A stretch of 64,000 bases of DNA from Haliotis rufescens (taxonomy: Eukaryota): positions 1,426,001-1,490,000 of the forward strand of contig NW_025963913.1 in the NCBI RefSeq assembly GCF_023055435.1, written 5' to 3'. Position numbers and translations under genes: made by a program. Under the pieces are notes generated by a model. The model worked only from the letters and a program-made list of their open reading frames with translations. It was not told the DNA's origin and made no database searches. The number at the start of each line of letters is the position of its first letter. Position 1 is the stretch's first letter. Below are positions 1 through 43,427 of this stretch, piece by piece.

Positions 1-18
1 ACAAACACAATGCCTCGA

Positions 19-123
19 TCATGTGAATCTCCTTCACTCAATTCACTTCCTGGTAGCCTACATATAGACTCCTGATCAGACATTTCATTGTACAGCTGTG
101 AGGTGTTGACATGAGAGGTGAGT
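19..123 (+). promoter_or_regulatory. Putative promoter plus non-coding first exon, copy A distal cassette
   Basis: TCATGTGA 19-26, TCACTTCCTGG 43-53, donor GTGAGT 118-123; homologous to 41148-41228. Confidence 0.55.
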
Positions 124-1419
124 ATCGGCATAGCTCTGTTCACTTCGCTGTAATGTCGTCTGTATATACGAGTGTCAGCTTCTCATGTGATTAACACTTA
201 ATACATGTGCCTCTCATGCTAATTTTTCCCTGCAGTTTTTAATTGTACTCTAAACAACGTCGTTTATTTCTTATGTGAGATATCAACATTATGTACAACC
301 TCTTAAAGGATGTAAGTAAAAAATACACCGTGATAATTACCCGTATTTAAATATGATTACTCCCTCAATAGATTCTGACCTCGGCAATGTCGGACAAGTC
401 CATTGTATGATCGGGGTGGGGTGGGTGGGATGGGTAAAATTGGTCTTTCCCGCATATTCTCACAATTTTCACGTCGATTATCTGCTCCTTTTCTCCCAGT
501 ACCGATTGTTATATCTCCCCACTTTTGGAAGCGATTGTTCGGCCATTGCGTTTATTTACGAAGGCCAGTAACATCTATGGGGAACAACTCACTAGGCACG
601 TCCCTCTAAAAAATAATGTCGTCCAATTTATGACGTCATCAAGTTGTTCGATTCTCCAGAAATGACGACATGATAAAACAATGTTTTATTGTGAAATAAA
701 CCACGCCTCGTCCTTCATTGTTCTTTGCGTAGCTATCTTTTATATCTATCTATTTATATATATATGAGCACACACCGTTGTTAATTGTGTTTTCCTATAC
801 TGTCCTGTCTAACCATGTTATTGCTCTGGATTCATGGACAGCTTTTGTAAACACATGATCAGATTTCAACTGCACTGCACCTCGATCAAGTATCTCTTCA
901 CGGGCTTAAACGGGTAAGTAACTCTGCAAACATAACTGCTCTATACTATGTACATCATCCTGACACATTTTACTTGATGGGGCGGTCGAGTAGCCTGGTG
1001 GTTAAAGATTTCACTCGTCACGCCGAAGAACTGATAATATCAGCTGCTGTAATATTGCTAAAAGTGGCGTAAAACCACTCACTACGTGAAAATACAGTTT
1101 TAACATGTTCGGATAGGATGATAAATAAGTGTGTTTTACGTTTTGTTAATATGTACCAAATCAGCTTTTAAAAATAGACCACATGTTATGATCCTCGTAA
1201 TCTGTCTCATGGTAATACACTGTGGATTGTGCTCGGGCTGGTTTGGCGAGTGAATGTATGTGGGCCAAAATAAAACAGAAAAAAAAGATGTTAGAATCTT
1301 ACAAATGTGCGTTTGAGAAAGTTAAGGAATCAATGAAAAAGTCATATGAGTCCCTGAAACTTACATAACAGTTTGAGAAACAACAAAAACAACAACACCA
1401 ATACTACTAATTATAAACA

Positions 1420-2400
1420 CAGTTTTCGTCAACGAGCCAAGGATGTGGGACATAATCTCAACGTTAGTGTTGATTTACTGCTGAAATGAGTGTCAACCAA
1501 GCAAAGTACCATATCAAATCGGCCCAGACACAAGAGAGGTTGAACGACCAGTCGAGTTTATGTACAGTGTGTTGAGAAGATCAGCAACCCAGCAGAGTCC
1601 TTCGCTTGGATGAGGTCGGCTGGCCTGAAAAGTGAAACAGAAGGCTTTCTGTTTGCTGCTCAGGACCAGTCACTTCCCATTCGAAACCGTCAATGTGTGA
1701 TTTTGCATCAAAATGTAAAAATGAAATGGAGATTATGTAATGAATTTGTCAGTGGATGCCCCGCTTTGGTACAAACACAGTATCTTAAGCGACATGATGG
1801 TGTAACTCGATTATTTTATTACGGTCTTCGCCATGCTTGTGGTTTAGACACAGAGGTCCATCCATGGTACGACCCGGAATATGTAGAGGGAGTCATGGAA
1901 AATGATCAATACAAACTTCTTTGGAAGGCCCGTAGACAGCCTCAGACCTACCCAGGCCAACAAACCTGATCTTGTCCTTTTTGATAAATCCAATGAAATC
2001 ATTTATGTCATCGAATTTTCTGTCGCTTCTGACACTAATGTGATTGACAAGATTCAGGAAAAACAGGGCAAATATGCAGACCTCGCTTTCGAAATGTCAC
2101 GCTTGTATCCCAAGTACCAAGTACCTGACATTGGGTGAGTACCCGGGTTTGCTGCCAGGAGTACAGCCCCTCTATCAATCTGGGTAATGCAGAAGGCTGC
2201 AGTGTTGGGGAGTCTTCACATTCTCCGAAAAGTTCTGAGTGGGCTTGACTAGGCAGCTTTTCCTGGGAGAAGTCGCTGTCTGGGCTGCATGTAGAGGGTG
2301 CAAGGGCCCTGAGCTGATGATTACCCTATCCAGCCTGACTGTGCCATGGTCTCTGCTGCATTTTTAATTTTAATCTGTAAATAATAATCATAATAATAAT
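1420..2400 (+). mobile_element. 3' fragment of an R4/Dong-like non-LTR retrotransposon with a restriction-like endonuclease
   Basis: LKSETEGFLFAAQDQ, SGCPAL..YLKRHD, KPDLV..VIEFSV..KYADL; frameshifted; ends in a (TAA)n tail at 2381-2400. Left boundary approximate. Confidence 0.8.
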
Positions 2401-2818
2401 GAAGAGTCGATTGCCCTATTCCGACCATATCATGAGCATGTGTATGAATCCAAATGGTGATGATACCAGGTGTTCGCGAAAAGGTGGGCGTATCATATAA
2501 TTGTGGAAAACCTTCTCTCGACATACATCCAGTTTAAGAACGGATAAATCTACAGTTCCATCACATTTCTCATGTTGTCTTAGAAACAAAATCATTATAC
2601 ATACGAAATAAGACATGGTGATCGTGATTGGACACATTCAATGCGGAGCAAAAAGCATCGTTTTTCCGTCCATCTTACGCTTTAAAAACTCGACGCTTTT
2701 CCGGACAATTTCTGGCCGCTCAATGATTAATCAGTTTTAATGAATGTTTTGTCGTCTAATGACCATATACGGAAAAAACAACGTTTTCGTGTTTGCAATG
2801 ATAGATGCGTTGTATTCC

Positions 2819-2906
2819 TCACATGATTCACTTCCTGGCTGCTAACACATATGCGCCAGTAGAGACATACAAGAGGCACTGTGAGGTGTTGATGTTGGAG
2901 GTGAGT
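2819..2906 (+). promoter_or_regulatory. Putative promoter plus non-coding first exon, copy A proximal cassette
   Basis: TCACATGA 2819-2826, TCACTTCCTGG 2828-2838, donor GTGAGT 2901-2906; homologous to 43093-43167. Confidence 0.55.
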
Positions 2907-4427
2907 TCTTTCTGTACATGTTGTTATTTAGTCACAAGTTTAATGTGTTAATTTGGTCATACGAGAAAAGGTTACAAAAAGCGATCAGGAGTGTTTGAAC
3001 AATTCCTTCATCTGCTTAAAATATGTATACATCCAGTAGCTACAATGATATGCATAATATTATTTTATTTCAAGATAATGTCAATCTAGAGCATACTAGA
3101 TGAATAAATAACCAAAAGATTATGTAAGTTAAGTGTGGAGTATGGCCACGGCTTTATTCATGAAATTACAGGGGGATGATATTTTGCATAACCCTGCAGG
3201 TTGGGCGAACCAAAATCACTGAATGCCGGCCCGAAGGCAATAGGACAAACAGAAAGCGCGACTCGAGAGGATAAACACATAACGAGTCATCAAAAGGCAA
3301 AATGACTTTGATCCCCCCAGGGTACACCAAAGGAGGTCAACCAGCGTGTCATTAAGCAAGCTAGGCCCTCGCGGGTAGCGCTCATCGAAGGCCTCTGGAA
3401 ATTACTATGCCCAATCCGCAAGTATTACGCCGCGATGTCACACATGGCGTTGGATGAACCTCACCTCGGTGACTGAATGGAGTCCTGCTGCCGTGACTGA
3501 AGCAGAACTGAAATTTGGCTTGGTACCCCTGTGATCATCCACAACAACCTGAAACAGCAAAATTTCTAGGCAGAAATTGTAACTTACTAACCTTCATAAG
3601 GTATATACTTTAATCATGTAGCTCATGACATGTCTGCAATATAAATATAAACTTTTAAGCTATAATAAGGGTGGGTATCGGGAGGGGGAAAAACAGTTTG
3701 CCTGTAATGGCCCCCGAAAGCGAAAGGCAGAGGGGAATTCCTTCACATTAAAGGTTTACTTCAGTTATCTCCCTTTGCCATGCTACTAATGTATAACCTG
3801 AATAATCTCATGGGAGCCGGCCTGTAATGCAAAATTATAGCTTGTAGACCCGAGTAACCTCCCTTAGCCTGCAACATAAATACTATAGTGCACAAATTAA
3901 ATGATGGGTCACCTATCCCAGGATTGCCGAACTATAATAAACCATTTTATCCTGTAAAGATAAAATTAATTATTTCAAGATAATGTCAATCTAGAGCATA
4001 CTAGATGAATAAATAACCAAAAGATTATGTAAGTTAAGTGTGGAGTATGGCCACGGCTTTATTCATGAAATTACAGGGGGATGATATTTTGCATAACCCT
4101 GCAGGTTGGGCGAACCAAAATCACTGAATGCCGGCCCGAAGGCAATAGGACAAACAGAAAGCGCGACTCGAGAGGATAAACACATAACGAGTCATCAAAA
4201 GGCAAAATGACTTTGATCCCCCCAGGGTACACCAAAGGAGGTCAACCAGCGTGTCATTAAGCAAGCTAGGCCCTCGCGGGTAGCGCTCATCGAAGGCCTC
4301 CGGAAATTACTATGCCCAACCCGCAAGTATTACGCCACAGGACTGTGTCTATACACAGACCCTCCAATACTTGGCACAGAAAACAAAAAAAAACAAAAAA
4401 AACAACAACAAAAAAACAAACTTAACA

Positions 4428-5013
4428 TTAATTGCCAGTAAACACCTTTGACCGGTCATCCAGAAGGAAGTACTCCAAAGCCTCCTGGTAGGTATTGACA
4501 AATATGGAAAAGCCCTACATCTGAAAGATGGACACCATCATGCCTGTACATCCCCAAATCCTGCGCCCGAATACCATGCTTTTTGGCTCACCTCCAACCC
4601 TTAGCACTGCACTCATGCCTGCTCTATTCAAGCGCTTCCTGGCTGCCTCCACCGATTTATAATTTGCTGCCCTATGCCCATACTGTCGTGGAAGTAACTC
4701 AGACCATACAAAGACTGTGAAGGGAAGTATCTTAGCAAAATATGTGACATCCTCTGTGACACTGCAAACTAAATTCCTAATAGGGTAGCTTACCAGATAA
4801 TTTGTACCTAAGTGGAGAATCATGACACGTGGAGGAGGTTTCCTTTCAAGCTGGGTAAACAATAGCTGTCTGAGCTCTCTCCAGTGCATTCCTCTCTTGC
4901 CAAACCAACTTAAGGTGAACCCCAATTTATGTAAGCCAAGATGCCTCCCTAATTTCAATCTGAAACTCTGCCGCTGAGCCCAATAGACAATGATGAGCCT
5001 ACAATCCAAACAT
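4428..5013 (-). pseudogene. Element-borne SGNH/GDSL hydrolase, frameshifted
   Basis: Block I VWIVGSS (frameshift just after), block II GKRG, block III LHLGTN, block V DGVH (different frame, after another frameshift); preceded by acceptor ttttttacag. Confidence 0.78.
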
Positions 5014-5186
5014 CTGTAAAAAAGACTTAATTAATGCATGAACAATTTTTCATACAACATACAATATCCAAACACATTGGTAAAGCAGGTAATGACATGA
5101 TTAGAATGAAATGAAGTAATTAGGAAAATAACATAAACATGAATGCATAAAATTGAAAAGTACATGATATATGATCATGATGATTG

Positions 5187-6296
5187 TTATGAAGCTGAAG
5201 CTGAAGCACTTGGGTTCTGATTGGGGTCCTGGCTAGTGTTTACAAATTTGCCAGATTGTGTTTTGGACAAACAGTAAGACGCAGGGTGGGAATTCCCTCC
5301 ACATTTGGAGCAGGTGTGTTTGAACTTGCACTTGTCTCGACTGCAATACCTGTAGTTGTAATCATGGCATGTTGAGTTTGTGTTTGTGTTCTGGACATGA
5401 AATGACTGGCTATCATTTCTGGGGAACGAGCTAAAATTCTGTGACGGAACTTGCATGTATAACATCCAAAGCTCTACATTGATTGACCCCCATGAATTCT
5501 GTGGATTTCGTGCTTGACGCAGTCTGAACTGCTCATCATATGTTCTCCAACCAATCCCAGTATGACGAGATGCCCCCAGACGAATTGTGTTCATGTATTT
5601 GAGCATTCCTTGTATCTGTTCCGGGTGACTTTTGATAAAAATGCTAATATACACTGTGAATGCAGTTGCCCAATCAGTTATGGTTTCAATCACTTTACCT
5701 GAAGCCTTTGGTTTCAGTTCCAAATGACCTTCCGAGTTAAGGAAAATGGCTGATGTACAAGCATAATCTTGTAATTCCCGGTCAGATTTCAGCAGCAATG
5801 CAAGATTGATATATTCACCATTACATATCTTTTGCTTGATACTCGAAGGAACGTTAGCTCCCAAATCATCATCACCACATTGTGTCGTGGGAGGGGTAAA
5901 CTCACTCCCGGCAAACAGTATGGGAGGGAAACATGGGGACTGCGCGTGTGAAGTGACTGACTGTGTTTGTGTACTTAACGGCTGAGTGGGTAAGGAAACC
6001 AATTCCGTAATATTGTTTGTAACTTCTGGATTAAAGGATATGTCAACAAACTCACCCCCAGTCGGTCTTGACCCACTCGCGTTTTCACCTGACGAAGTCT
6101 GGAAAGGCGCTGACCTGCCTGCTTGAACTTGACTGGGTCCACGTGCTGTCGCCAAGTTATCTGGCTGTCCCATCGCTGCTTCGGGCATGCCGGGCGGTGA
6201 CGACTGCGAAGGGGCCTGTTCCTTGCGTTTCTTCTTCGTGGCCGCTCTTGTCCCACGTGTCGGCCGCTTTCTCATTGGCTTCCCTCTCCCTGACAT
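5187..6296 (-). CDS. Ngaro-type Gag-like protein (likely start ATG at 6296)
   Basis: Open ORF with basic N-terminus, IKQKICNGEYINLALLL, WATAFTVY, GWRTYDEQFR and C-terminal zinc fingers CHDYNYRYCSRDKCKFKHTCSKCGGNSHPASYC. Confidence 0.82.
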   Translation of the reverse strand: MSGRGKPMRKRPTRGTRAATKKKRKEQAPSQSSPPGMPEAAMGQPDNLATARGPSQVQAGRSAPFQTSSGENASGSRPTGGEFVDISFNPEVTNNITELVSLPTQPLSTQTQSVTSHAQSPCFPPILFAGSEFTPPTTQCGDDDLGANVPSSIKQKICNGEYINLALLLKSDRELQDYACTSAIFLNSEGHLELKPKASGKVIETITDWATAFTVYISIFIKSHPEQIQGMLKYMNTIRLGASRHTGIGWRTYDEQFRLRQARNPQNSWGSINVELWMLYMQVPSQNFSSFPRNDSQSFHVQNTNTNSTCHDYNYRYCSRDKCKFKHTCSKCGGNSHPASYCLSKTQSGKFVNTSQDPNQNPSASASAS

Positions 6297-6914
6297 GCTG
6301 CGAAACACGAAAATATATGCACGAACACGGAAAAAACAGTTTGCCTGTAATGGCCCCCGAAAGCGAAAGGCAGAGGGGAATTCCTTCACATTAAAGGTTT
6401 ACTTCAGTTATCTCCCTTTGCCATGCTACTAATGTATAACCTGAATAATCTCATGGGAGCCGGCCTGTAATGCAAAATTATAGCTTGTAGACCCGAGTAA
6501 CCTCCCTTAGCCTGCAACATAAATACTATAGTGCACAAATTAAATGATGGGTCACCTATCCCAGGATTGCCGAACTGAAATAAACCATTTTATCCTGTAA
6601 AGATAAAATTAATTAAATCCTATTAAACGTATTTCGAGTTCTCTATCTGTTTTCCATCATCAAACGGATACGTCCTGATATAAAGCAGCGATAAGTATAC
6701 TCACATATTCACTCACTCACCAGCTAAGTGAGGGTTTTTTGTTTAACGCCGCTTTGAAAAATGTTATTGCAGAATATTTTACAGGCTTATATGACCGTAT
6801 GTCAGGTTTATGTGGGAGAAAAGCCCCAACTAATGCAGGTCTTAGACGTTAACCACTTTGGTGATACCAACCGACACATGTGTGGTGCTGACAAACAAAG
6901 AAACATTATCAGAG

Positions 6915-7200
6915 AGGTGAGGTCAGGTGAAATGGGGTTTTACGCCGCGTACAAGATTATTACACTTATAAAGCGACGTGCATGTACGTGTGTGTGTGGC
7001 TGCTTGTACTTGTCCGGACTGATGCCGATTTATAGTACTAGCCCACTGAGATACCATGACGCTGTTTAACATGAATACCCCACTGAGGCACAGTACACTG
7101 ACTCCGAGCCGACTAGTCCTTGTTTTTGCCCCTTAATCCCGAGCGCCAGACAGGGTGACAACAAGTACCATCTTTTTTACGTCTTTTGGTCTCACGCGAC
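6915..7200 (-). mobile_element. MetaSINE-like element (second copy ~31830-32045, + strand)
   Basis: Core AGATGGTACTTGTTG..GGCGCTC..AAGGGGC.AAAACAAGGAC in both copies; absent at the paralogous site ~43500. Confidence 0.6.
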
Positions 7201-7502
7201 CATAGGTTTCTGGCATGCCTAAAGGACGCAACGCTCCTTCCTTTTCATGATAAGATCATTATGATGTATTAGTTCGTTTGGAATAATGTTGCACAATAAA
7301 AACTATTTTGGCCTCGTACCTTTTGATAAAAGCATACAACGACACTCGTCGAGAAAATTGGAATTTTAAAGCTCCTCAATTCTGATACTTTAATCGACGT
7401 GTGCTGGAATATTTGTGATAAAACACATTCTGGTAAGATTCGCTATTTATGTGATCAGTATTAAGCAAGTTTTGTTGTTGTCTTTTCAGTTAGGTATCCG
7501 AC

Positions 7503-10500
7503 ATGGGTTTGGTCTGGATAGGACTGCTTATGGCCTGTGTCACTGTTACACTCACTGGTAGGAACGTTATTCTCAGAATGTGAAATAAGTATAAATATTT
7601 GACTTACCTACAGGTTGGATTCACAAACAGTTCCTTATCCAGAAACTTTGTCTATATGTTCACTGTTGTGTGAATCAGTAATGACCATTATCAATCAAGT
7701 GAAGGTACATTTTTTTCAAACAGATGCTGAATGTCACTGTAACACTACAAGCGCCTGTGCCGTGTTCCCATCTACTCCCTGTAGCCAGGTCGGCAGTCCA
7801 GACGAATGCCAGGAAGGATGGTATGGTTCGTACTGTCAGAAACGTGAGTGTGAGGTCGATGGGTAGATGTAATATCACAAATACAAGTCACCGATCATTG
7901 TGATACTGATCATGTGTTTATATTTTCAGAAAATATTGCGTTGGGAAGAACATGCAATCAGAGCAGTTCATTGAACTATAACGCAACTAACTACGGAGCG
8001 GGACTTGCTGTAGACGGCAGAGCCACCACAGATGCCAGGAGCACGCCACTGACATGTGCCCATACACAGGAAGAGACAGATCCCACCTGGACTGTGAACC
8101 TGAACACATCACGTCCAGAAAAGATACAACACATAAGACTCTATCTACGTGACGACTGTGAGTACATCCACATATGAAGAAGTAAGGGTGATAATATATA
8201 ATTCCAAAATATAATTGTTGAGGAGTAGTTACTGTGAGGATAACTAACGAACTACGAGGAATTACTTTTCACAGGGGAATTAATGTAATAGATCCAAAGT
8301 GAGCGACATTAATTCCCAAGGGAAAGATAAACCGAGTTGTTATATTTATATAATAATATTCCGAATTTCGAGTTGGTTATTCTCTTTCTTACCCATAATC
8401 AAATTTAGTGCCACCGTCTCTAGCTTTTATTCCTAAAACAATCGAAATGTCACACGTGTTAACGTACAGACACAGCGGCTCAGTAGCCAATTTATAGTTT
8501 TCGAATAGTAAACTAGCACTGGGTGGTGCATGGGTGAACGTGGACTATTTATCATCAACCCCAATTAAGTAAGCTGAATGTAGTAATTTGAAATCAGAAT
8601 CCAGACTTTTCGCCGTTCTTGTTCCATGACAGCGCGTTGATTACAAACTCAAAGGAAGAACGAATGGAAAGAAGTTCCGTCGACCAATGGAAAGCCGAGT
8701 TATTTTAGGAAAACTGTAATTCCCAAGAGCATTACAGAATATTTAATACCTTTTATCCAGATTCGTTTATATGTAAGAAAATCAAATAGGTTACTTATAG
8801 GAATTATATATTTTTCATCAAATATTATATTATAACAAGGTATAACTTCAGCAGAAGTTACACATTTGTTTGTTGTTGTTTTTCCCAATAATGATGTAAA
8901 ATACAACAACAAACACAACAGAATGGTAGGATCTATCAAGAGTACACTGCACACTGAGAATAATTACTAATTCCAAAGGCAATATATCTCGTAATACAGA
9001 CAATTAATATAGCTAATGCACATGTTTATAGTTAATATAATGCAGATGCAATGTAATTTAAAAATGAATAAAAATAGTTGCCAAGATAACCACAGTCTTC
9101 AGAAGTGAAATATAGTGAAGTAATTTATATACCATTTCTATTATCTTCCTTCCTTTTAAACATTGAACACGGCCTGGTGGTAATATTCCCAATAATTAGG
9201 TAACATTTTGGCATGGACGTCGTTTCATAGAATTAAATCTTCATATTGTCATCAATAGTCGTTTTAATACCAAGGTAATGTATTCCACTTAGCATCGTTA
9301 CTTCTACAAGTAACATAGATCTTCATTGTTGTAGTATGTTTATCTACATTATACTATGTTTTAAGTCCTATGTTTTCAGTGGGTTGTCCATCTGAATTCA
9401 GAAAACGCCGATAATAGTCATTGCGCTGGTCCCCAAACACGTTGTGTTTTTAATTCGTTTTACGTTACTCAGATTATTAACAGGCATTGAAAAGTGTCTT
9501 AGTCACCGTGAAGTGGGCACCCATAAAGAACATCAGGTGTGCCTTGCAAGGTTTAGTTCTAGGGTCGGGGACAGCAAACAAACAACTGTCAAAATAATTT
9601 CATATAATTTAAAACGCATTCACTGAACCCCATTTAAGAAGCGTGGGACATGACTGATTAAGGGAGCGTGTGTTTGTTGTTTAATTCCACTCAGCAGCAA
9701 TTTAGCTCTATGGTGGCTACTGCAAATAATCAAGTCGTCATTACTATCATCGCAAACAACAATCCACGCATTCGTGGTATGATGCCACGCAATCAACCAA
9801 GTCACAGAGCCTTCCGTTTGGTCGTCTCTTACGACCAGCATAGGTTGCGGGGGACCCATTCTAACCCGGATTCCCCACGAGCGGCCTTCTTGAAATTGTG
9901 AAGTGAAGTGGCTGCTACATTTATGCAAGTACTCACAATGACATTTCTGGCTTCTCCTGAATTGATCGTGTTGCCTCATTAAGTATCAATGGTTGAGTTT
10001 GCAGTTGTTATCCAGATCAGGAAATGGGGTAAAATGGGGCTTAACGATATTCAAGATTATTTCACTTACGTAGCGATGTCCTTGACTTGATCTCTTTTTA
10101 CATTCATTTTGTAAAGTGCAAGAAAGACACAACGGCATGGAGATACTTGTGGGCAGTCAGATGTGCTACAACTGGTCGTCCACTGAACATCCTCCTGCTA
10201 TAGCTATTTTCACCTGCCGTCAGCCACTGACAGGAACCACGGTCACTATACGGATACCTGGTGACAGGAAATTCCTTTCCTTATGTGAGATGCAGATATT
10301 TGGTATGTCTTTGCTATTTGAATTCACGTATTTTGACAATTTGTCATGTGGTATGAACTATAAGCTCTCACTATCCAAAGATGTTTGAGCTGAATTGTTT
10401 TTCATGAATTAGAGCTGAAACTGCTCTTATCGGTGGGTCACCAAACTTGTTGCACGTATCCTTGGAACATACAATCGATACTATAACAACCGTATTAAGT

Positions 10501-13500
10501 TATATGAGGTGTTTCAAAGTGATTATGATAATCAGTAGAGTTCCAAACATGTATGTTAAAGGTAGAAGTAACATATATCAAAAGAATAACAATGAACAGT
10601 AAATACACCATATAGCTAAACTATCATAATCTGCCTTGAACATTTCAACATATATTCACTAGAAATGCTTAATCAGATTATTACATTTGATTTATCGATC
10701 CTTCAACCTTAATGAAACATGTATAAATCAACGTGCACCTTGACAATAACATGAACACGTTCCGTCTTCCATAATACACAGTTCTACATGTACAGGATGA
10801 ATAGCTTTAAATATGTTAAACAATAATCAGTTTGCAGTGATGGATGGTTTTCTGACGATTGTGGCAAACAGTGTCGATGTCAGAACACTACCGAAATATG
10901 TACTAAGTCAAAGTGCAATTAGATAACACTTAGAGAAGACATAGTTCTACATATGTAAATGGTGATGATGTATTTAGAATAATACTCATATTGTTAAACA
11001 GTAATCACATGTTAAACAATTATCAGTTTGCAGTGATGGATGGTTTTCTGAAGATTGTGACAAACAGTGTCAGTGCCTAAACAGTACTGATGTATGTGAC
11101 AAGATCAATGGTCACTGTTCTAGTGGATGTTTCCCAGGATTTCTTGGTGCCGACTGCCAAACAGGTATGTGTTGAAAATGATATAAAAATAGAAATAAAA
11201 TTTCATTGGAGCCTTTTGGAGGTATCTCGTGTACGTTCAGGTTCATTCTAATTATATGCACACAACTAGCGTACGAGTATTGCCAATGTGCCTGTTACAT
11301 AATCTGTGCGGGGGCGATGAGTGGTCTATTTCAATGCATTTTGAAATATACAGTCTAAAACGTATTTTTCTGGAGTTTCCCAGCAACAAATGGTGTTCAA
11401 AAAAGGTGATTAAGTGTAAATCATGCACAACAAGTTCGAATAGCCTTCCTGATAGAAAGTCCGAACAATGACTACGACAACTATTTTAAATGCATTAATT
11501 AAAGACAGTAATCTAACAATCTATTACATTGATGAATGTCACCATAGCGTTGATGTCATACCACCTGATAACATTGCGACATTCACATAATGGAAGATAC
11601 TTTCAACGTTGTGTTACCTCCACCATGTTAACAGGTTTGTACAGTCGAACCTCGCTTTTCTGGACATTTGTGTTTCCCAAATATTGTCTGGATAAACATA
11701 TAGCTACATTGAATTTTGATGCAATCTAAAACCAGTATCATATCAGAAAGAATATATTCCAAAATCGCGTTATTTTAGTTGCGGCATTTACTACATATAT
11801 TTGAAAATACTAATTTCCTGCTGCCTTCTTGTGTTCCCATATTATAGTCTGGCTACAATAAAAAGGATTTAACGAGTCAAAGTGTAGCATTTATGATATA
11901 TTTCTGTCCATTCTCTGCCGACTAACGTTCCTTTCAAGGCGTCAATAGCAGTTGGTGTAAATAATGGTGAGTTGCTGCGATCACTCACAGTTTCGCTGAA
12001 ATTACTAAACCTTTGAAGACAGATATGTAACTATATATGGCCATTGCGTTTGGAAACACATGCCCCAAGGAATGAAGTTCTTCCTTAGGTTTATCGTGTG
12101 CAACAGTAGTGTACACAGTTGAAAAATGAAATTTTTGACGTAATTAAACTTGGTCTTGTCAGTGGGAACGACTACCGATGTTTTTTGGGTTTTTTTATGT
12201 TGGGCAGCCAGACCTGTCAGCTGACTGAGACAAAATGTGCTTATTCCATTTCTGTCTCCTCATTTTCTCAGTTCCTCAGTTCTACCAATGACAAAACTCT
12301 GCACTGACGTAAATCGCGGTGAAATACATTCGACATTGGGCCAATTTCTGGCATACGCTTCGAGAGTATCCATACTTACTTTAAAGTTGTAATCACAATA
12401 GGCAGCAGGTTGTTATACGCACTCATGAATATTTTCATTAAAGATTTCACACAAAATTACGAAGATTTTCACAAAACAGAAATGTAATGATGATTGACAG
12501 TGTTCCAGGAAACTGCCTTGATGCTGTCAGCTGTTACGATACAGCGCAAGCATTTCCTGGAGGATGTGCAGTAGGGTGAATGAATGACGACACATGCCTG
12601 CACCTAAAATCACATGATGTTAAGCGAAGGCTAGGCAGTGACGTATGATGGGGTATTTAATATATTTATGTTTGCAGAATATACGATCACAATGAATATC
12701 AATTTTGTGAATTCATGTTTACAGCATGTCCAGATGGATCCTTTGGTAGCAACTGTGCCTCCCAGTGTGGACACTGTCTAGATGGTGATATCTGTGACAG
12801 GACAAACGGAACATGTCCTAGAGGATGTGCATCAGGATGGCTGTATGGCACATGTCTACAAGGTGGGTTTGTGTAAGGTTGATATTGCCGAATACGATCA
12901 CACCATGTGTTCATAATATTATGTGTTTGCAACCTGTCCAAATGGTGCTTATGGTATCAACTGTGCCTCCCAATGTGGAAACTGTCTTGAAGCCGACATC
13001 TGTGATAAGACAAACGGAACATGTCCAAGAGGCTGTGCAGCAGGGTGGCAGGGTGATGCTTCATGTCAACAAGGTGAGTCTGTATGATTTTAAATGAAGG
13101 CTAATTTTGCAAAAACGATTACACCATATGTTTCTTACGTGTATACGTGTATATATATGTGTGCAGCATGTCCAGATGGTTCCTATGGTATCAACTGTGC
13201 CTCCCAGTGTGGAAACTGTCTTGCTGGTGACATCTGTGACAAAAAGACAGGAACCTGTCCTGGGGGATGTGCAGCAGGGTGGATTAATGACGGCACATGT
13301 CTACAACGTGAGTACCAATGATGGCTATTGCCGTTATGAAAACACATGGAATTACCCTCAAGGTTAACTAGAATCCATAACTTACATATCTGATATTTTC
13401 GTAGCCACGTCATTCATACCATGAACTGTTCATGGACAAACATGAAACATTACATGCTGCAGTGCCATGTGGTTGTACATTGTCACCATATGTCCTGACG

Positions 13501-15287
13501 GACTTCATCTTAATTAATTATCTCTGCTTAGGCACTGGTAAGTTACGGGGAAACGCCTGAATGTGACAAGACAAAGAGTTCTGCTCAGAACTTACATTTG
13601 CTATTGATATACATCAGTTAACTTAGAATTGTGTGTATTGAACCCTGACATTACTTATTTCACATACTGCACTTAGCGTAACAACTTGGGCAACAAGTGT
13701 CAGTCTGAGTGTGGCCATTGCAAGTCCAACTTGCGATTTAGCAAAGGCAATGGAACATATGAAGAGGGCTGTCTAAATGAGGACATGTGTGCAAATGCAG
13801 GCAGAATAATACTAATGCGAGGACATCATGGTAATATGCTTCCACAATACATAATGTGATGGACACCAAACATACAGGTGTCAAATATCAAGCATGACAC
13901 CTGTACTTGAAATGATTATATATCTATTCTGACAGAGTGTGCCGTTGGAAAGTATGGGATTAACTGTACATCACATTGCGGATTATGTAGAGACTCCACG
14001 GCCAGTGACAAATACAGTGGTGAGACGAAGCAACATTTGTAATGAGATGATTCGATTCACCAACCTTTCCCTTTCTTGCATTGCATAAGGAACGAATGAG
14101 ATATACGTAAGATTATTCTTCTGTGTGTCGCATTTATGCTGCAAACAAAACACGTGAAGGAAAATATGTCTTAGGATTTAATATGATCATAAAATGTCTG
14201 AATATTGTTTGGTGTTAAACACTGATTGCATGACATGCACAAGGCAGCTTAATTTCAATAACGGTTGTACATAAAGCTTTTTTGTGATGTTTTCTAAGTT
14301 AGGCTCACATGTGTCTGTATATCGCACCACAACAGGTGAGGAATGCAAATGGGGAATTCCTGTAGCAGCCACCCTTGCTGTGTTGCTGATCTTCACAGTG
14401 ATTGGGGCAACCATACATATCAGACGGTAGTATAATTTGCAACAATCATACAAAGAACCATACGTTTACCAGTGTTAAAGAAAATTTATGTTAGGGATTC
14501 TAAGGCTCAGTACACCTACTGATCTATTTTTCATTGTGTATCAAATGGTGTCGAAAAGGAATATTGTTATTTGTTAGGCTTAGACCGTGACCTGGTCATA
14601 GATCCCAAAAATATCCTTATACTATAGAAATATACCAATACTGTAAGAAAATGCATAGTCATCTTAAAAATTGTGTTGATGATTTTGTATAACCGGTAGC
14701 CTCTCCGAGATCAAGTTGGTATTTTGTTTACTTTTTATCCTCTCTATATGCAGATCAAAGTTATGCTATGTTGATGGTGTAATATTATGGTTTCACTTTA
14801 ATTGAAAAAAATGTCAACATTTCAAAGCATTCTAAATCATCGGGTGCACATTGTTAAAAATTGGTTTGCCTCACCATTATTGTTTTGACTGAGAAAAACC
14901 CTGTCAAAACGTTTTTCAAACTATATCTTGAAGGTACTTTGGAGGTATCAGTTACACAGTTGTCGCCCCTGCGTAATTCCCGATGTTATCAAAACTAATG
15001 TTGGTTCATGTAGTACAGGTGTTTAGCGATACAGCTTCTTCGCCATATTGAATGATCTTAGACATTAGATTATTTAACTGTTCCGAAAAAAATTACTAAA
15101 TAGCAAAAGTTATTTTCACGTCAGATTGATGAAACAACTGGAGAGCTTGAAAACCAAGATGTCAGAGGAACATTATTTGAAGCTTGAAGAGAAGACAAGG
15201 GTCCAAGCAACAGAAAGTACCTACGAATATATCGACAATGCTACTCCTTACTACAATACAGTTGATCATGTTCAGGATGAAATCTGA
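7503..15287 (+). CDS. Receptor copy A: F-type lectin plus EGF-repeat type I membrane receptor, 447 aa. Coding exons 7503-7557, 7724-7843, 7930-8157, 10117-10302, 11027-11164, 12725-12862, 13167-13307, 13936-14019, 14336-14426, 15125-15287
   Basis: All ten exons have GT-AG borders and compatible phases. Signal peptide MGLVWIGLLMACVTVTLT. F-type lectin motifs NIALGR..QSS, LAVDG, CAHT..DPTWTVNL, RDDLQER, LSLCEMQIF. EGF units CxxGxxGxNCxxxCGxC..CDxxxGxC. TM GIPVAATLAVLLIFTVIGATI. Tail with YLKL, YEYI, YNTV, then TGA at 15285-15287. Confidence 0.88.
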
Positions 15288-15884
15288 TGGGTTTAGCATC
15301 CATTATGGAGGAGAGGATGCTACACTACAGATATATATACTTATCACCAAGGGGTACCAGGTGTAAAGGAGTCATATTTAAACGCAAATGTTAAACTGTA
15401 GGTTTTTTCACTGAAACAAAATTATATACATAGAAAATAATCAACTTATCCTACATCACATACACTGTTCATAAAAAGATTAATGTTTTAGATCTCGATC
15501 GATGTAACTTATACTTTGTGTAGAATCGACTTTCGTCTGATGAACTGGAAAAAATCCCCGAACAAGGAGAATCAGGCCTTTAAAAGTTCATACATACAGT
15601 ATACAAAAAGAAACTTGACGAATGCTGACTTTCTGTACTTTGTGTGGTTTAAGGTAGACACGATGTATATTGATTCTGTAGCGCGTTTCGTTTCGCATAA
15701 AATCTTCTATATTTGTAAAATGAAGGTAAAGTTGAAGGTAGCTTACCAATACTGATGAGGTTGTGTGGGTGGGGTTTAACGTTTAGAAACTCTCAGTTCT
15801 GTGATTAAAACTATGCTTATCCGACGTCGTTGCTGTATCTACATCAATTAAATCTGGATGTCCGCCTCGTGGTAAAGACTAGAT

Positions 15885-18460
15885 TTATTTATTTATAGTC
15901 TTTTGTCATTAGGCATCATTGGCCACAGGCCCATTATACATTACAGAGTTTACAGTGAGAGAGAAACATTATAATACCAAAGTAAATTTTAGGTGATTTA
16001 CACAAGACGTAGTTTCATTGCTTTGTAGATGAATACGGACAGATTTTGAATGATTAATACTTTATTTGATGCCATTAAATGTATGGAGGGGTACAGGTAA
16101 AACGTTTTGGGTACATATTTTCGTCTTAAATGTACCTATCGATCACAAATTATTATAAAATGAAATTCATCTTCAATTTGATTGTGATTGCAAGCTAGAC
16201 ACAACATTTCAGATTTTAACTCTTTTTATACCCCCCAGTCTCAATTCGGAGCTGGTGGGAACAGCATCTAAGGGCAAGGGCACGTCTATATTTAAAAATT
16301 TATAATTCTTTTAAATATGTTTCTAAGCCGAAATTTGTTTTGAATAAATTGTAAAGAATTGATTTTGAGCTTGATGAAAGTGCTGCGTGCCAATTTTGTG
16401 CATAAGATAATTTTAGACGGAGTATAAATTCCGACAGAAAGCTTGAGATATTACTTGTAAATTGTTGTTCCCATATGTAACCAAAACCAGCAGAGAATAG
16501 GATGTGTTTTACTTTTGATGCCCCGTTAGTTTTTCCATTACTACAGCCTAACAATAATAAGTTACAACATTTCTTTACCAAACGTTATTCAGGCATATCA
16601 ATCTTTTTCCACCAATACTTAACAACTAGTTTAAATGCAAATATGTACATTGGGTATCTTCCGCATTCTCCTCCAAAAATGTGGTTTGAGGATGACTGCT
16701 TAACACATAAAAAAAAACTCTTACAGGCAAACATTTGTACAACTTCTATTTCGTCGTAAGTATGAACACCCAAAACGTCAGAGCCATACAATAGAATTGG
16801 GCTGATTTTGGAATCAAATATTTTTAAAAATAGATCATGAGGTAAAGGATTTAACATATAATATGATAATTCCACACAGAACCTTTTTTGCCTGAGTTGA
16901 TGCACTATTAACATGAGCAGACCACAGTGGTGATCTAGAGAATAATAATCCAAAGTATTTGTAACATGAAACACATTCAAGCTGGTGCTCGTTACGATAC
17001 CACTTTTCGACTCTTGATAAATTTCCACCATTTTAAAAAAAACAACGATTTTAGTTTTAGCTAAGTTAATAGACAAGTGGTATTTATTACAAAAACAACT
17101 TAAAACATTCATTCGTTTTTTGTATCCCATAGACAGTATCTGCAAAAAGGATGTTTGCAGCTGCACCCCTGGCGCACATGAAGATTCTATTTGTTCAGCA
17201 AGCTCATTTTTAAAAATAGAAAATAAGAAGGGGTTCAACATGCAGCCTTGCCTGAGGCCTGAAGGACAATCAAAACTATCAGATAATATGTTATTTGATT
17301 TAACACATCCCTTCACACAACTATATATAGATTCAAGTGCATTTAACATCGTGGGTGAAACTCCCCTGCATTTTAATATAAACCATAATTTAGATTTGTT
17401 AACAAAGTCGAAAGCTTTTTTGAAGTCCACAAAAAGCGCATAAAGCTTACCACGCTTTTTTGAAAGGTAGTGTTGAATAAAAGTTTGTAAGAATCAAATA
17501 TTATCTATATCCTTTGCGAAATCCAGCTTGCGACTCGCTAATTTTGTCGTTCGAATTCGCCCAAAATACTAATCTTGCATTAAGAACTAATGTATAAAGT
17601 TTACTTCAAGTGCTTAAAAGGTAAATACCTCTATAATTATTAGGATCAGATTTAACACCTGACTTATACAAAGGGATTATGATACCTGTTCTCCATGATT
17701 CAGGGAAATATGATGATTCAAAAATGACATTAAACAACAATGCCATGTATGGCAACAATATATCGGAGGAGGATTTGAAAAATTCTGAGATAAGGTTATC
17801 TTCCCCTGGAGTATTTTAGTTTATAAACTGCTTCTTGTATCTCTTCTTGAGTGATCGGAGAATCAAGTATACAGGCGGCCGTATCATCAGCATTATAGTC
17901 AGTATCAGAATTTTCAGTCTGTTCTGGCAAATAAGCGTCACATTCTTCAAATAAGTTCTTGAAATACGAAAACCATTCTGATATATTGACATTGTCCTTT
18001 TTTGACAACTTGGTTGTATATTTCTGTAGCACAGTCCAAAACTCTTTTGAGTTATTTATATTAGCTAGTAAAGTGTCTCTGACAGATGCATCATATTGTC
18101 TCTTTTTACTCCTTATTAGGCCATTATATTTATTGCATTAAGTAATATATAAATGTAGTGATTCACTGTTCTTTGATCTTCTCAAAGATTTCAGTAGCCT
18201 CAGCGTTTCTGATCGACTGAAATCACATTCTAAGTCAAACCATGGTTGATCTGATTTTACAGGATAAGTTTTGTTCTTATTTTTCATGAAGTCAGCAGCC
18301 TGGTGAATAGCATCAGTAAAAACTTTAACAGCTTGGTCGATATCAGTCAAGGCAAGAGTGCAGCAGTCATTAAGCATAGATGATACAGTATATCGGATGA
18401 TAGGATATTGTCTCTAAATCTTTCAGCAAAATTATTATCCCATAAAAAATTAAAACCTTC
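15885..18460 (-). mobile_element. Degraded non-LTR retrotransposon ORF2 (RTEX-like; clade assignment tentative)
   Basis: DFKKAFD, GLRQGC, GECGRYP, KYW, EDEFHF; many frameshifts; (TAAA)n tail at ~15885. Confidence 0.75.
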
Positions 18461-20937: not shown

Positions 20938-23900
20938 CTTACTTACTTACTTTGGAGATTTAACGTGCGCTTTCCGACTGATGCGTATTTCGCACACGGG
21001 CCCGGCCAGGCCATTTAATGTGTTTCCGAAAGGGGCGAAGGTGGTCTGTGCAACCCAAGAGGGGGGATTTAGGGGTTGCTTATATAGAATTTGGGAATTT
21101 TGAGATTTGGAATAGATGCCGATGGGATTGGGGAGGAGAACTAAGGGAGCTGGGTATGGTGGATGTTTGTTTGTTTATGTGATTTTGATTTGGTGAGTTA
21201 TTGTGTTTTTAGATGCGTTTTATTAGTTCCGTTTTGATTAAGAATACGCCTAATGCCTTGAAGTTTTCTAGTTTATTTTGTGGGTTTAGTATTGCTTCTA
21301 GAGTTAGAGCCTTGTTTAGATTGAGGGTGGTTTGTAATGCGGTTCGATGTGTTAGGTAGTGTGTGCAGTGGATGAGTGCGTGTTCTGGGGTTTCTGGTTG
21401 TTTGCAGTGTGGGCAGTTACCTGTAGTGTGTTTTTTAAATTTTTTTAGGTGGTTATTTAGGTTGGTGTGTCCTGTTTGGAGTTTAGTGATTACTCTGTCG
21501 ATTTTTTTGGATGGATGGAGAATTTTTGGTTTGGTTAGTGGTTTGCTGAGCACTTTTTTGATTTGGCTATTTGAGTTTAGATATAGGTTATGCCATTTTT
21601 TGGTGATTTTTTGCTTGTTTACACTTTTAATTTCTGATTTTGAGATGGGTAAGTTTAAGCTTATTTCTGGGATTTTGAGGGATAGTTTAGCTGCTTTATC
21701 GGCGTTTTCATTACCGTATATTCCTACGTGGGCGGGTATCCACAAGAAGGTTATTTGTTTGCCTGCCTTAGTTAGGTCGTTGGAGCTTTTAAGTATTTGA
21801 TTTATTAATTGAGGTCGGTTTTTGGTATTTTTGTTTTGGAGGGCTTGCAGTCCACTTAGGGAGTCGGTAAGTATTAGGATTTTTTTGTGGTTTTTGGATT
21901 CTTGATTATGGAGGGCTGAGGCCATGCCCATTAGTTCTGCCGTGAATATTGATTGGTTGTTTGGGAGTCGGAAGGATTGTGTGGTTTTAGTTGGTTGTGT
22001 GGTATGGACTCCGAAACCTGTGTGTTTGGAGGTCGGATCTGAGGATCCGTCCGTGTAAATGTGACACCAATTTGGCCAATTTTCGTGTATGTATGCTAGT
22101 GTGGTAGTTTTAGCTATGTTTGGGTCGGTTTGTTTATTTATTTGGCTAGCTAGTGTTGTGTCTATTTTGGGTATTTTAAGTTTAGGGGTGAAGATATTTG
22201 ATTGTTTGCAGTTTTGTTTAAGATTTTTAATTTGGTGTTCATTTAGGTAGTTTGTTATTCTTTGGGATATTGGGGTAAGCAAGGGGTGTTTACGAGCTAG
22301 AGCTTGGTTTTTGGGGCTGATGTTTTGGTTTATTAAGTTTTGGATGAGAGGGTTTGATTGGGACGCGGCCCAGAAATTTAAGCTTAGCTGTTCCCTGCGT
22401 AGACTTAGTGGCATTTCTCCTGTTAAGGCCTGAAGTGAGGTGTAGGAGGTGCCATGTTGGGTGCGTGTAATTAGTTTGAGAGCCTGATATTGTATTGAGT
22501 CAAGTTTTTTAGATAGAGAGTTGTTTAGGGTGTTGTATATGGCGCAGCCGTAGTCTAGTTTTGATCTAATTAGTGATATGTAGAGAGAGAGGAGGGTATC
22601 TTTGGATGCTCCCCAGTTAGAGCCAGTTAGGCATCTTAGGGTGTTTAGGTCTTTACTGCATTTAGTTGTTAGGTTTTGGATGTGAGCATCCCAGGTGAGA
22701 TGTTCATCGAAAATAAGTCCTAAGAATTTGGTTTGTTTTTGAAATTTGATTGTTTGATTGTTTAGCTGGAGGATTGGGGAGGCGGGTTTCATGTTTTTAT
22801 GTTTGAATACTATTCCTGTTGTTTTTTCTGAGTTAAGGGAGAAGCCCCATTTGTCAGCCCATTGTTGTATTTTATTAAGAGATTTTTGGAGTAAATTTTG
22901 GACCATGTTCATGCTTTTAGTGCGGATACAGATGGCTCCATCATCCGCGAATTTTGATGTGTTTACTTTAGGGGATAGGCCCTCGAATAGATCGTTTATC
23001 ATTATATTGAAGAGGGTGGGGCTGAGGATACTGCCCTGTGGAGTACCATTTTCTAGGGGACATTGGTCCGATAGAGTTTGGTCTATACCCACGGTTATTT
23101 TACGATTGTTTAGGAAGTCCTGGATGTAGTTTATTATCTGACCTTTGAGTCCTATTTTTTTAAGTTTTTGTATTAGCCCATCGTGCCATACCATGTCGAA
23201 AGCTTTAGAGAAGTCTAAGAAGATGCCTGTGGTATATTGTTTATTTAGCTGTCCTGTCTTAATATCTTGTTCTAGTCGGGTGAGGTTATCTAGGGTTGAG
23301 CGGCCAGGAGTGAAACCGCTTTGATCTGGGTTTATGATGTTATTTTGGGTTAAGTAATGTTGTAATCTATTTTTAACCATTGATTCCATTACTTTACATA
23401 AGTTTGAAGTTAGGGATATTGGTCTATATGAGTTAGCTTGATTAGCTGGTTTATTAGGTTTAGGGATTGGTATGACTAGGGCCTGTTTCCAGGGAGTAGG
23501 AACCTGTCCGTTTAGGTAGATGAGATTGTATAGTTTGAGTAGTGCCTGGAGTAGTTTTAGGGGGAGTTTTTTAATTATTTGGTAAGAAGTTAGGTCTAAT
23601 CCTGGGGCTGTGCCCTTTTTCCTGTTTTGGATTACGTAGAGGAGCTCCTCCATTGTGTAGGGTTGATTTATTTCTAGATTGTTATTGTTTGGTTCTTTTG
23701 TGGGTTTGTTTTCTGTTTTAAGTTTATCTTGGAATTTTTTACTGAAGTTGGTGTTACTGCTAACGGCCGAAAAGTGGTTGGCGAGATTATTTGCTTTTTG
23801 GGCGGGGTTGGTTGAGTTGTCAATGTTAGGGTTTTTTTTATGTCGTTTTAAGCCTCTGATGGCGTGGATTTTGCGCCAGACCGTTCTGGCATCTGTACGG

Positions 23901-24170
23901 TTATTTATACCTTCGCAGAATTTTTTCCAGTCTCTACTTTTGGCTATTTGGACTAGTTTTTGAACCTGGTGGTTTAGTTCGTGGGCTATGTTTAAATATT
24001 TGTAGTCGCGTTTTGCTTTATTGAAGGCTGATTTACGTTTTCGTCTAGTCTGTTCTATTTCCTCATTCCACCATGGTACCGTCGGTTTGCCTGTCTTAGA
24101 TGTTTTGAAGGGGATGGAGGTTTTGGCTGCGTTTATTATATAGTCTGTTAGGTTTTTACAATAGGTTTCT
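20938..24170 (-). mobile_element. Young 5'-truncated I-clade (I/Nimb-like) LINE
   Basis: ORF2 open from ~24169 to 21209, 3' UTR with (AAGT)n tail, flanked by 11-bp duplication GCACACGGTCA (20927-20937 and 24171-24181). Confidence 0.9.
21209..23653 (-). CDS. LINE ORF2: reverse transcriptase, RNase H and C-terminal CCHC; endonuclease lost by 5' truncation
   Basis: YRPISLT, FLDFSKAFD, GTPQGSILSP, FADD; RNase H YTDGS..AEL..TDS..WIPAHVGIYGNENADKAAK; CPHCKQPETPEHALIHC. Confidence 0.92.
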   Translation of the reverse strand: MEELLYVIQNRKKGTAPGLDLTSYQIIKKLPLKLLQALLKLYNLIYLNGQVPTPWKQALVIPIPKPNKPANQANSYRPISLTSNLCKVMESMVKNRLQHYLTQNNIINPDQSGFTPGRSTLDNLTRLEQDIKTGQLNKQYTTGIFLDFSKAFDMVWHDGLIQKLKKIGLKGQIINYIQDFLNNRKITVGIDQTLSDQCPLENGTPQGSILSPTLFNIMINDLFEGLSPKVNTSKFADDGAICIRTKSMNMVQNLLQKSLNKIQQWADKWGFSLNSEKTTGIVFKHKNMKPASPILQLNNQTIKFQKQTKFLGLIFDEHLTWDAHIQNLTTKCSKDLNTLRCLTGSNWGASKDTLLSLYISLIRSKLDYGCAIYNTLNNSLSKKLDSIQYQALKLITRTQHGTSYTSLQALTGEMPLSLRREQLSLNFWAASQSNPLIQNLINQNISPKNQALARKHPLLTPISQRITNYLNEHQIKNLKQNCKQSNIFTPKLKIPKIDTTLASQINKQTDPNIAKTTTLAYIHENWPNWCHIYTDGSSDPTSKHTGFGVHTTQPTKTTQSFRLPNNQSIFTAELMGMASALHNQESKNHKKILILTDSLSGLQALQNKNTKNRPQLINQILKSSNDLTKAGKQITFLWIPAHVGIYGNENADKAAKLSLKIPEISLNLPISKSEIKSVNKQKITKKWHNLYLNSNSQIKKVLSKPLTKPKILHPSKKIDRVITKLQTGHTNLNNHLKKFKKHTTGNCPHCKQPETPEHALIHCTHYLTHRTALQTTLNLNKALTLEAILNPQNKLENFKALGVFLIKTELIKRI

Positions 24171-43364: not shown

Positions 43365-43427
43365 ACTCACTCACTCACTCACTCACTCACTCACTCACTC
43401 ACTCACTCACTCACTCACTCACTCACT
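43365..43427. repeat. (CACT)n microsatellite
   Basis: Perfect tetranucleotide run; only a short version at the paralogous ~6700-6722. Confidence 0.9.

Follow-up and report, generated by a model that had tools for sequence, protein, structure and literature searches.

A lectin-headed receptor with a conserved tyrosine tail in a mixed cluster of tyrosine-tailed and phosphatase-tailed genes of Haliotis rufescens

Results

Gene structure and transcripts of copy A

The window analyzed here is a 64,000-nucleotide stretch of the genome of the abalone Haliotis rufescens (contig NW_025963913.1, positions 1,426,001 to 1,490,000). On its forward strand lies a receptor gene, designated copy A, together with a tandem paralogue, copy B; window coordinates are used throughout, on the forward strand unless marked otherwise. 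Ten exons of copy A, spread over 7503–15287, join into 1,344 nt with a single open frame of 447 aa, and every intron is bounded by GT..AG. This gene model is confirmed as genuine, which bears out the intact ten-exon, 447-aa receptor assembled in a preliminary description of the window; the epidermal growth factor (EGF)-like stalk, single transmembrane (TM) helix and short non-catalytic tail proposed there were likewise supported.

The encoded protein begins with a signal peptide (exon 1, 7503–7557, matching the start of the named record P0004), followed by an N-terminal EGF/DSL-like module (exon 2, 7724–7843; weak DSL/EGF matches, E = 0.01–0.08) and a lectin domain of the F type distributed over two exons. 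Exon 3 (7930–8157; PF22633, E = 3e-4) carries the first half, with the AVDG calcium motif, the His and first Arg of the basic triad and a hypervariable loop, and exon 4 (10117–10302; acceptor AAG, vs. CAG in copy B) carries the second half, with the second Arg and an LCE motif. The 3.5 EGF repeats of the stalk are encoded by exon 5 (11027–11164, covered by RNA contigs of at least 96% identity), exon 6 (12725–12862, placed by its splice sites and by RNA contigs at 82%), exon 7 (13167–13307, placed by its splice sites and RNA contigs) and exon 8 (13936–14019), an 84-nt half repeat with an internal donor at its end. Exon 9 (14336–14426) encodes a TM helix without charged residues, followed by Arg-Arg, the helix being predicted in the copy B model, and exon 10 (15125–15287) encodes the 53-aa cytoplasmic tail, in which ExxYxxL (Tyr codon 15174–15176), a 12-residue spacer, YxxI (15222–15233) and PYxN (Tyr codon 15249–15251) precede the stop codon.

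The stalk proved unstable. An open EGF exon at 12933–13073 has lost its acceptor (AA instead of AG) and falls outside the 447-aa model, and in run X8 a close relative of it is joined to the exon that follows (13073>13167). Three further EGF exons are decayed: a partial duplicate of exon 5 with a stop at its end (10831–10922, 86.5% identical to 11009–11097), an exon that translates with an in-frame stop (12501–12600), and an exon whose frame is mismatched to its acceptor and which, by self-comparison, is missing in copy B (13677–13800). The ten-exon model represents one selection from a variable set of EGF exons, and Pfam cut-offs were not reached by single EGF exons.

RNA contigs were taken from six of 14 runs, three microRNA runs and five smaller runs being left out, and the RNA status of the runs is itself a guess. 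At 82% likeness, the joints 13307>13936, 14019>14336 and 14426>15125 were bridged in four of four runs, 7843>7930 was exactly bridged in two of the four, and the exon 3–exon 4 joint was bridged in all four with paralogue letters at the joint; in addition, the piece lengths of one 371-nt contig fit the four 3' exons end to end. At 96% likeness, again in four runs, X8 bridged 7843>7930, 13073>13167 and 14426>15125 and X6 bridged 11164>13167, while X4 and X5 gave no exon cover on copy A. Most contigs are 82–95% alike to copy A and thus come mostly from alleles or paralogues, so the splicing they display is that of the family rather than of the exact allele. The ten exons were therefore corroborated by RNA as a family structure with most joints bridged, and not as a full-length transcript of this allele. 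The preliminary description had named a different last exon or frame as fatal to its reading; the same last exon and frame are used by the database models of neighboring genes (P0009, P0036 and P0038), and the sole noted exception is a record of H. rubra (P0028) with the last exon in another frame.

Copy A itself might be decaying or rarely used in this haplotype, a question separate from the mechanism of the family. Its sole named record, LOC124116604 of Haliotis rufescens (P0004), matches exon 3 at 100% and has only 140 aa, exons 1–3 reading into intron 3; moreover, four EGF exons are damaged, exon 4 has an AAG acceptor, and exon-covering contigs of at least 96% identity came from two of four runs only. 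Against this, the frame is open over 447 aa, the head shows a ratio of nonsynonymous to synonymous substitution rates (dN/dS) of 0.29–0.46 against six close paralogues, and comparable read-through forms are on record for other members of the family (P0008 and P0011). We regard decay or rare use of copy A as rather improbable, though more than a remote prospect.

Copy B and the segmental duplication

Copy B (43800–51375) was recognized by self-comparison and by a database model as a tandem paralogue that arose by segmental duplication. The duplication behind the two copies spans ~18 kb (5–18459 vs. 41108–55671) with 70–92% identity in blocks. The tail motifs of copy B, YVNL, YEHI and YNTV, lie at 51262–51351. 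In-frame stops occur in its exon 2 (45563–45682) and in its 84-nt exon (50037–50120), and the 379-aa database model P0036 is intact, skipping both stop-bearing exons and keeping the TM helix and tail. Because two relatives in H. cracherodii skip the same exons as P0036, interpreting copy B as a pseudogene is unnecessary. Intron 1 of copy B also holds transposase fragments (44147–45223, reverse strand), which by their motifs are Tc1/mariner-like; no terminal repeats were found for them.

The F-type lectin head

The head of copy A is predicted to adopt the F-type lectin fold. The protein folded was copy B (P0036), which shares 83–85% identity with copy A over both lectin exons. By sequence, it matched striped bass FBP32 (E = 3.5e-20), with Tie2 as the second match, and it scored above the cut-off of Pfam PF22633. 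The model built from a 42-row alignment reached a mean confidence score (pLDDT) of 87, vs. 45.6 without the alignment, and its best structural match in Foldseek was eel agglutinin (1k12; E = 3.8e-12, root-mean-square deviation 2.4 Å); the top ten matches were all F-type fucose-binding domains. The FBP32 sequence match and the predicted fold agree with the F-type lectin head of the preliminary description.

In eel agglutinin, a His and two Arg bind fucose, with the consensus HX24RXDX4[RK] (PMC5712786). The His and both Arg of the abalone head aligned with those of FBP32, and the Arg-to-Arg spacing in R-D-D-L-Q-E-R is the same as in the second domain of FBP32. The triad His was kept in 17 of the 18 genes of the receptor cluster described below. 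The calcium motif (consensus h2DGx, with x small and hydrophilic) begins as AVDG or GVDG in 18 of 18 genes, x being Arg in 16, Gln in one and Ile in one. As automatic joins between exons 3 and 4 were implausible in about six of the 18 genes, the sugar motif is quoted for copy A and database proteins only. Of the four head exons, exon 3, on which the first loop and the triad His lie, evolves fastest: dN/dS is 0.61 in one subfamily and 0.76 in another, vs. 0.17–0.27 for EGF exons, and its first loop changes in length among paralogues. The abalone domain resembles eel agglutinin (AAA, 1k12) and FBP32 (3cqo) in its predicted fold, its aligned His/Arg/Arg and its most variable first loop; in contrast to these soluble lectins, it forms the head of a receptor, has a His-to-Arg distance of 28, lacks a vicinal Cys pair and has a calcium motif that ends in Arg. 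We infer that the head binds a fucose-type glycan.

The tyrosine tail is conserved across the family

In copy A, HYLKL lies at 15171–15185, YEYI at 15222–15233 and YNTV at 15252–15263, with spacings of 12 and 6, in accordance with the preliminary description. That description had also taken the retention of the tyrosines and hydrophobic positions in copy B as a sign of selection, which was not upheld. The two tails differ with dS of 0.10, dN of 0.08 and dN/dS of 0.87, and their identity of 92% compares with 89–96% in five nearby non-coding stretches. In simulations of neutral drift between copies A and B, the four tyrosines and three hydrophobic positions were all kept in 22–34% of cases. Selection deduced from this pair was therefore rejected on the basis of its neutral-like divergence and the drift simulations. 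Furthermore, a pair resembling the tyrosine-based activation motif of immunoreceptors (ITAM) appeared in 3% of shuffles of the copy A tail, so a single tail is weak evidence.

At the level of the family, the evidence for the tail is strong. The tail exon matched 14 places in the genome, 13 on the contig that holds the window (C135) and one on C1. The first tyrosine, the Leu at +3, the second tyrosine, a Pro and the third tyrosine were invariant in all 13 non-relic tails, both Tyr codons were used, and synonymous sites between the two tail classes of these 13 were mostly saturated. Seven of 40 ungapped columns were invariant (Glu, Tyr, Leu, Thr, Tyr, Pro and Tyr), three of them tyrosines. Judged from this conservation, the tail tyrosines are under selection across the family, and the expectation that they would be conserved across paralogues held.

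YxxL-x12-YxxI was present in 12 of 14 genomic tails and in all nine tails of three other Haliotis species (a count that omits P0028, with its other frame), an acidic residue at −3 of the first Tyr in 13/14 and 8/9, and PYxN in 11/14 and 8/9, respectively. The residue typical of an immunoreceptor tyrosine-based inhibition motif (ITIM; S-x-YxxI) was found in copy A, in 6/14 genomic tails and in 9/9 tails of the other species, and the YNTV-type motif in 4/14 and 7/9. As far as these alignments go, the conserved unit is a long-spaced ITAM-like pair, ExxYxxL-x12-YxxI, plus a Grb2-type site, PYxN. The ITAM-like spacing of the preliminary description stands under the wide consensus D/ExxYxxL/I-x(6-12)-YxxL/I, as quoted in PMC6994640, which copy A fits, and not under the strict spacer of 6–9 residues (PMC9546547). 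The alternative pair YxxI-x6-YxxV ends in Val and occurs in 4/14 tails. Similarly, the ITIM consensus [ILVS]xYxx[ILV] holds for copy A and all nine other-species tails but not family-wide, and YNTV is not a conserved motif, the invariant third tyrosine being the preceding one, in PYxN. The designation of YYN as a Grb2-type site agrees with that invariant tyrosine and with the frequency of PYxN, and Grb2 would be expected to bind there. The tail was also considered as a truncated phosphatase juxtamembrane segment, an origin that was rejected because tail and juxtamembrane queries matched separate places.

Heads are shared between tyrosine-tailed and phosphatase-tailed genes

Copy A belongs to a cluster of 18 genes, of which 12 have tyrosine tails, five have tandem phosphatases and one is of the phosphatase type but cut short, with the types interspersed. 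The cluster was mapped with tblastn on 630 kb of C135 (1.17–1.49 plus 1.77–2.08 Mb; genome searches gave no matches in the gap between) and anchored by the database models of four genes (P0031, P0038, P0009 and P0036). All five phosphatase genes retain intact WPD and HCSAGVGR motifs in the first domain. In the homologue search, 13 of 32 matches carried phosphatase domains and represented receptor tyrosine phosphatases whose heads were almost the same. Moreover, the best match of exon 3 after its own record was a phosphatase receptor of H. cracherodii (88%), above copy B (85%).

A tree of four head exons from the 18 genes, with tail-type labels assigned in advance from the map, required five changes of tail type, vs. 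a shuffled mean of 5.2. A single phosphatase clade was rejected (approximately unbiased test, p-AU = 3.7e-52), and two starred clades each mixed both types. Trees built only from tail exons or only from juxtamembrane exons were short and mostly unresolved, with one starred branch each. Since the tails are homologous to one another, the phosphatases are homologous to one another and the heads are unsorted, the heads must have moved between tail types. In addition, two genes of different type, one at 1333 kb with the tyrosine tail and one at 1354 kb with the phosphatase, have ~11 kb in common, introns included, at 87–94% identity, of which 6,074 bp are at 94.0%, and they part ways before the TM exon; in older tail/phosphatase pairs, only exons and some introns are common. 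At the sequence level, exchange of heads between tyrosine-tail and phosphatase genes is demonstrated. The cluster shows one hallmark of paired activating/inhibitory receptors, namely clustered genes whose closely related ectodomains are joined to different cytoplasmic modules and kept alike by recombination.

Several other arrangements were observed among these genes. At C135:1375220–1377180 (L018), decayed copies of the last phosphatase exons are directly followed by an orphan tail exon whose acceptor reads AA, with a Tyr-to-Phe change at the second tyrosine and no TM exon, an arrangement with the appearance of a trace left by recombination between genes of the two classes. At C135:1212414–1222132 (L002–L003), a phosphatase-type gene ends after its juxtamembrane exon, and the interval up to the next gene yielded no phosphatase exons. 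More lectin-exon matches lie near phosphatase exons on C68, C575 and C46, with C112 and C1 noted as further contigs, and the pairs P0110/P0060 and P0130/P0174, each consisting of a short-tail and a phosphatase form on contigs of equal length, suggest more mixed clusters. P0041 of H. asinina and the gene at C135:1977 kb carry the head of one subfamily on the tail class usual for another, so shuffling has also occurred between the two tyrosine-tail classes. The phosphatase receptors P0005, P0016 and P0031 have a C-terminal YxN (YANL, YTNM), a motif preferred by Grb2, so that a possible Grb2 site is present in both classes.

Related receptors in other molluscs and SH2 genes

The spread of the architecture was assessed in the best 150 matches among cluster representatives, 20 of which were identified by name. 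A lectin head was present in 73 of the 150: 26 had a TM helix and short tail, 16 a phosphatase, 30 no detected TM helix and one a long tail. With two close family members omitted, an ITAM-like pair was found in seven of 24 lectin-head short tails, vs. 0.17 in shuffled tails (none of 2000 shuffles reached it), and in three of 28 matches without a detected lectin head, vs. 0.25. The 20 named matches came from Haliotis, Pomacea, Sinanodonta, Dreissena, Crassostrea, Plakobranchus and Solemya, with no Biomphalaria sequence among them. Named lectin-head short tails with an ITAM-like pair belonged to Haliotis, Pomacea and Sinanodonta, and lectin–phosphatase forms to Haliotis, Pomacea, Plakobranchus and Solemya, so that both forms occur in Pomacea. 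A word-based search with the TM helix and tail returned six proteins, all from Haliotis, and the tail was found by sequence similarity in Haliotis records only; ITAM-like pairs elsewhere in molluscs are therefore a motif-level likeness. In the abalone genome, SH2 exons were checked for five of 47 matches, and their best matches were Csk, SHP2, Src-family kinases (two) and PLC-gamma.

Other features of the window

A long cysteine-rich EGF-repeat exon of ~380 codons (29645–30790), with an in-frame TGA at 30539–30541 and weak PEAR1-like EGF matches, is unrelated in exon style to the lectin receptors. At 3054–6615, near-identical split direct repeats (3054–3431/3960–4336, 98.7%; 3686–3972/6329–6615, 99%) lie around a 403-aa open reading frame (5187–6398, reverse strand), an arrangement reminiscent of a DIRS/Ngaro-type retrotransposon. 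The reverse strand also carries a 989-aa frame at 21209–24178 and a fragment at 16585–17493, by their motifs a long interspersed element (LINE)-type reverse transcriptase/RNase H and a second reverse transcriptase, respectively. A short open frame at 60626–61000 has a PAN/apple-like cysteine pattern, and at 57196–58542 a 37-bp unit is repeated in tandem 36 times.

Discussion

On balance, we lean towards copy A being an activating member of a paired-receptor cluster, with its phosphatase-tailed twins damping the signal. The signalling steps are ones that we infer. A glycan-bearing surface, whether of microbes, parasites or cells, would cluster the fucose-type-binding lectin heads, upon which a Src-family kinase would phosphorylate the two tail tyrosines. 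A tandem-SH2 kinase of the Syk/Shark type could then dock on the tyrosine pair and Grb2 on PYxN, with engulfment or a response of the haemocyte as the outcome. The phosphatase twins, related in head and similar in stalk, would enter the same contact, strip the phosphates and set the threshold. Unequal crossover or gene conversion could place new heads on either output, by which a glycan might be rewired from 'stop' to 'go', and gain or loss of EGF exons together with recombination may alter both the link between ligand and output and the height of the receptor.

Several observations weigh against this interpretation. With 12 residues, the spacer is the longest that the wide ITAM consensus allows and exceeds the strict range of 6–9, YxxL/I is compatible with sorting signals as well, and 6/14 tails have S-x-YxxI, which agrees with an ITIM. 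In the head, 28 residues separate the His from the Arg and one residue fewer precedes the last Arg, in departure from the strict HX24RXDX4[RK]. A Syk/Shark gene was not positively identified among the five of 47 SH2 matches checked, and a full-length copy A record was absent from the database protein matches examined. Furthermore, the head-to-tail links of most cluster genes come from gene order, no tail/phosphatase pair has identical heads, and tandem duplication could have led neutrally to the shuffling of exons of equal phase. Receptor phosphatases can also activate Src kinases, so their role as a brake is not assured.

Four other functions of the tail receptors have to be weighed. They might be scavenger or uptake receptors that take bound glycans into the cell and whose YxxL/I motifs act as endocytic sorting signals, with little kinase signalling, and YxxL and YxxI do match the Yxx-hydrophobic sorting consensus. 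Biomphalaria counterparts are, moreover, annotated as scavenger class F-like (PMC13712769). The fixed spacer of 12 (12/14 tails), the acidic residue at −3 (13/14) and the third invariant tyrosine in PYxN exceed what sorting needs, however, and the pairing with phosphatases points to phosphotyrosine control, which makes a pure uptake role unlikely. An inhibitory or mixed tail, in which SHP2 would be recruited through the ITIM-like second tyrosine and both classes would be damping, is suggested by S-x-YxxI in copy A, 6/14 genomic and 9/9 other-species tails, by the SHP2-like gene in the genome and by the ITIM isoform of Draper that is read by Corkscrew (PMC8092387). Yet Asn occupies the −2 position in most tails of the second class, with the tyrosine pair and its spacing retained, and two kinds of receptor would be needless if the outputs of the cluster were only inhibitory; we find this explanation improbable.

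Still less probable is that the tail receptors are decoys or tuning subunits that compete for ligand or form dimers with the phosphatase receptors and act mainly as substrates of the latter. The heads are closely shared between the classes and truncated and TM-less database models are present (P0004, P0006 and P0014), as decoys would have it, but the tail is a conserved exon of its own rather than a cut-down juxtamembrane exon, and its tyrosines appear to be under selection. Finally, F-type lectins also act in fertilization (PMC5712786), and the same machinery could serve gamete, larval-settlement or cell-adhesion recognition, but the birth-and-death cluster, the variable lectin loops and the resemblance to parasite-resistance loci of snails (PMC12297450, PMC13712769) are more in keeping with immunity and leave a non-immune role very unlikely.

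For a paired-receptor cluster of the kind that we favor, the open-access literature yielded no paper on the abalone family, its tail or the ITAM/phosphatase pairing; Biomphalaria supplements, which may list tail motifs, lie outside that scope. Among vertebrates, the clustered paired receptors KIR, LILR, Ly49 and Siglec are braked by an ITIM, through which a soluble phosphatase is recruited. In contrast, the brake of the abalone receptors would be a phosphatase that forms part of the twin receptor itself, and their head is a lectin rather than an immunoglobulin (Ig) domain. Hydractinia Alr (PMC9546547) and Botryllus FcoR (PMC12065747) likewise comprise clustered paralogues with related ectodomains and alternative tyrosine outputs (ITAM and ITIM tails), but they have Ig heads where the abalone has a lectin, and the accessible text mentions no phosphatase twins. 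The oyster receptor CgIgR has its own ITAM and is reported to recruit Syk and promote haemocyte phagocytosis (PMC6994640); it differs in its Ig ectodomain and shorter spacer, and no phosphatase twin is mentioned in the accessible part of that paper.

The closest architecture is found in snails. The LG5R resistance locus of Biomphalaria comprises clustered scavenger class F-like subgroups, 1B with a small cytosolic part and 1C with two phosphatase domains (PMC13712769), and receptors of such architecture lie under schistosome-resistance association peaks in two species of the genus (PMC13712769, PMC12297450), at which the short tails have been reported to be featureless. Compared by architecture, 1B and 1C share with the abalone family the signal peptide, the fucolectin/galactose-binding domain, the Tie2-like EGF stalk, the TM helix, the small tail or two phosphatases, and clustering. 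The small tail is described as 'without identifiable domain signatures' in the accessible text of PMC13712769, which contains no occurrence of ITAM or ITIM and does not describe shuffling between heads and tails. SudRes1 of B. sudanica (PMC12297450) is similar in its galactose-binding domain, multiple EGF repeats, TM helix, tandem phosphatase, clustering with MEGF genes and turnover of paralogues; it differs in that the accessible text discusses the phosphatase form alone, likewise with no occurrence of ITAM or ITIM. The domain layout is known from snails, whereas the conserved ITAM-like tail and the exchange of heads between outputs appear to be undescribed.

The abalone receptors also resemble Draper, MEGF10 and CED-1 in their EGF stalk, single TM helix and long-spaced ITAM (PMC8092387, 10.1101/198986), the ITAM tyrosines of Draper being 15 apart (10.1101/198986) and those of the abalone pair 16 apart. 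Compared with the accessible descriptions of those proteins, the abalone family differs in its lack of EMI and NPxY, its 53-aa tail, its lectin head and its multigene cluster with phosphatase twins. No EMI domain was matched in Pfam scans of 11 pieces and five whole proteins, and no NPxY was present in 24 aligned tails; the Draper/MEGF10-type assignment of the preliminary description was thus not supported, and names such as 'draper-like' in databases stem from the EGF stalk. Ligated Draper is reported to signal by excluding a receptor phosphatase (10.1101/198986). In the abalone, unlike in Draper, we propose that a phosphatase with a matching head would be drawn into the contact.

These comparisons bear on the way in which recognition of a glycan by molluscs becomes a decision to switch an immune response on or off. 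Tentatively, and with less confidence than for copy A itself, we suggest that molluscs may possess lectin-based paired receptors whose heads are recombined between an ITAM output and a built-in phosphatase, a balance of opposing signals that would have arisen independently of the vertebrate ITAM/ITIM systems, and that the same logic may apply at the schistosome-resistance loci of snails. An ITAM-like tail with phosphatase twins would offer a concrete mechanism for the Biomphalaria loci, and the genes of the cluster are candidates for disease resistance in abalone. The family would, moreover, exemplify paired receptors in which an enzyme forms the inhibitory arm.

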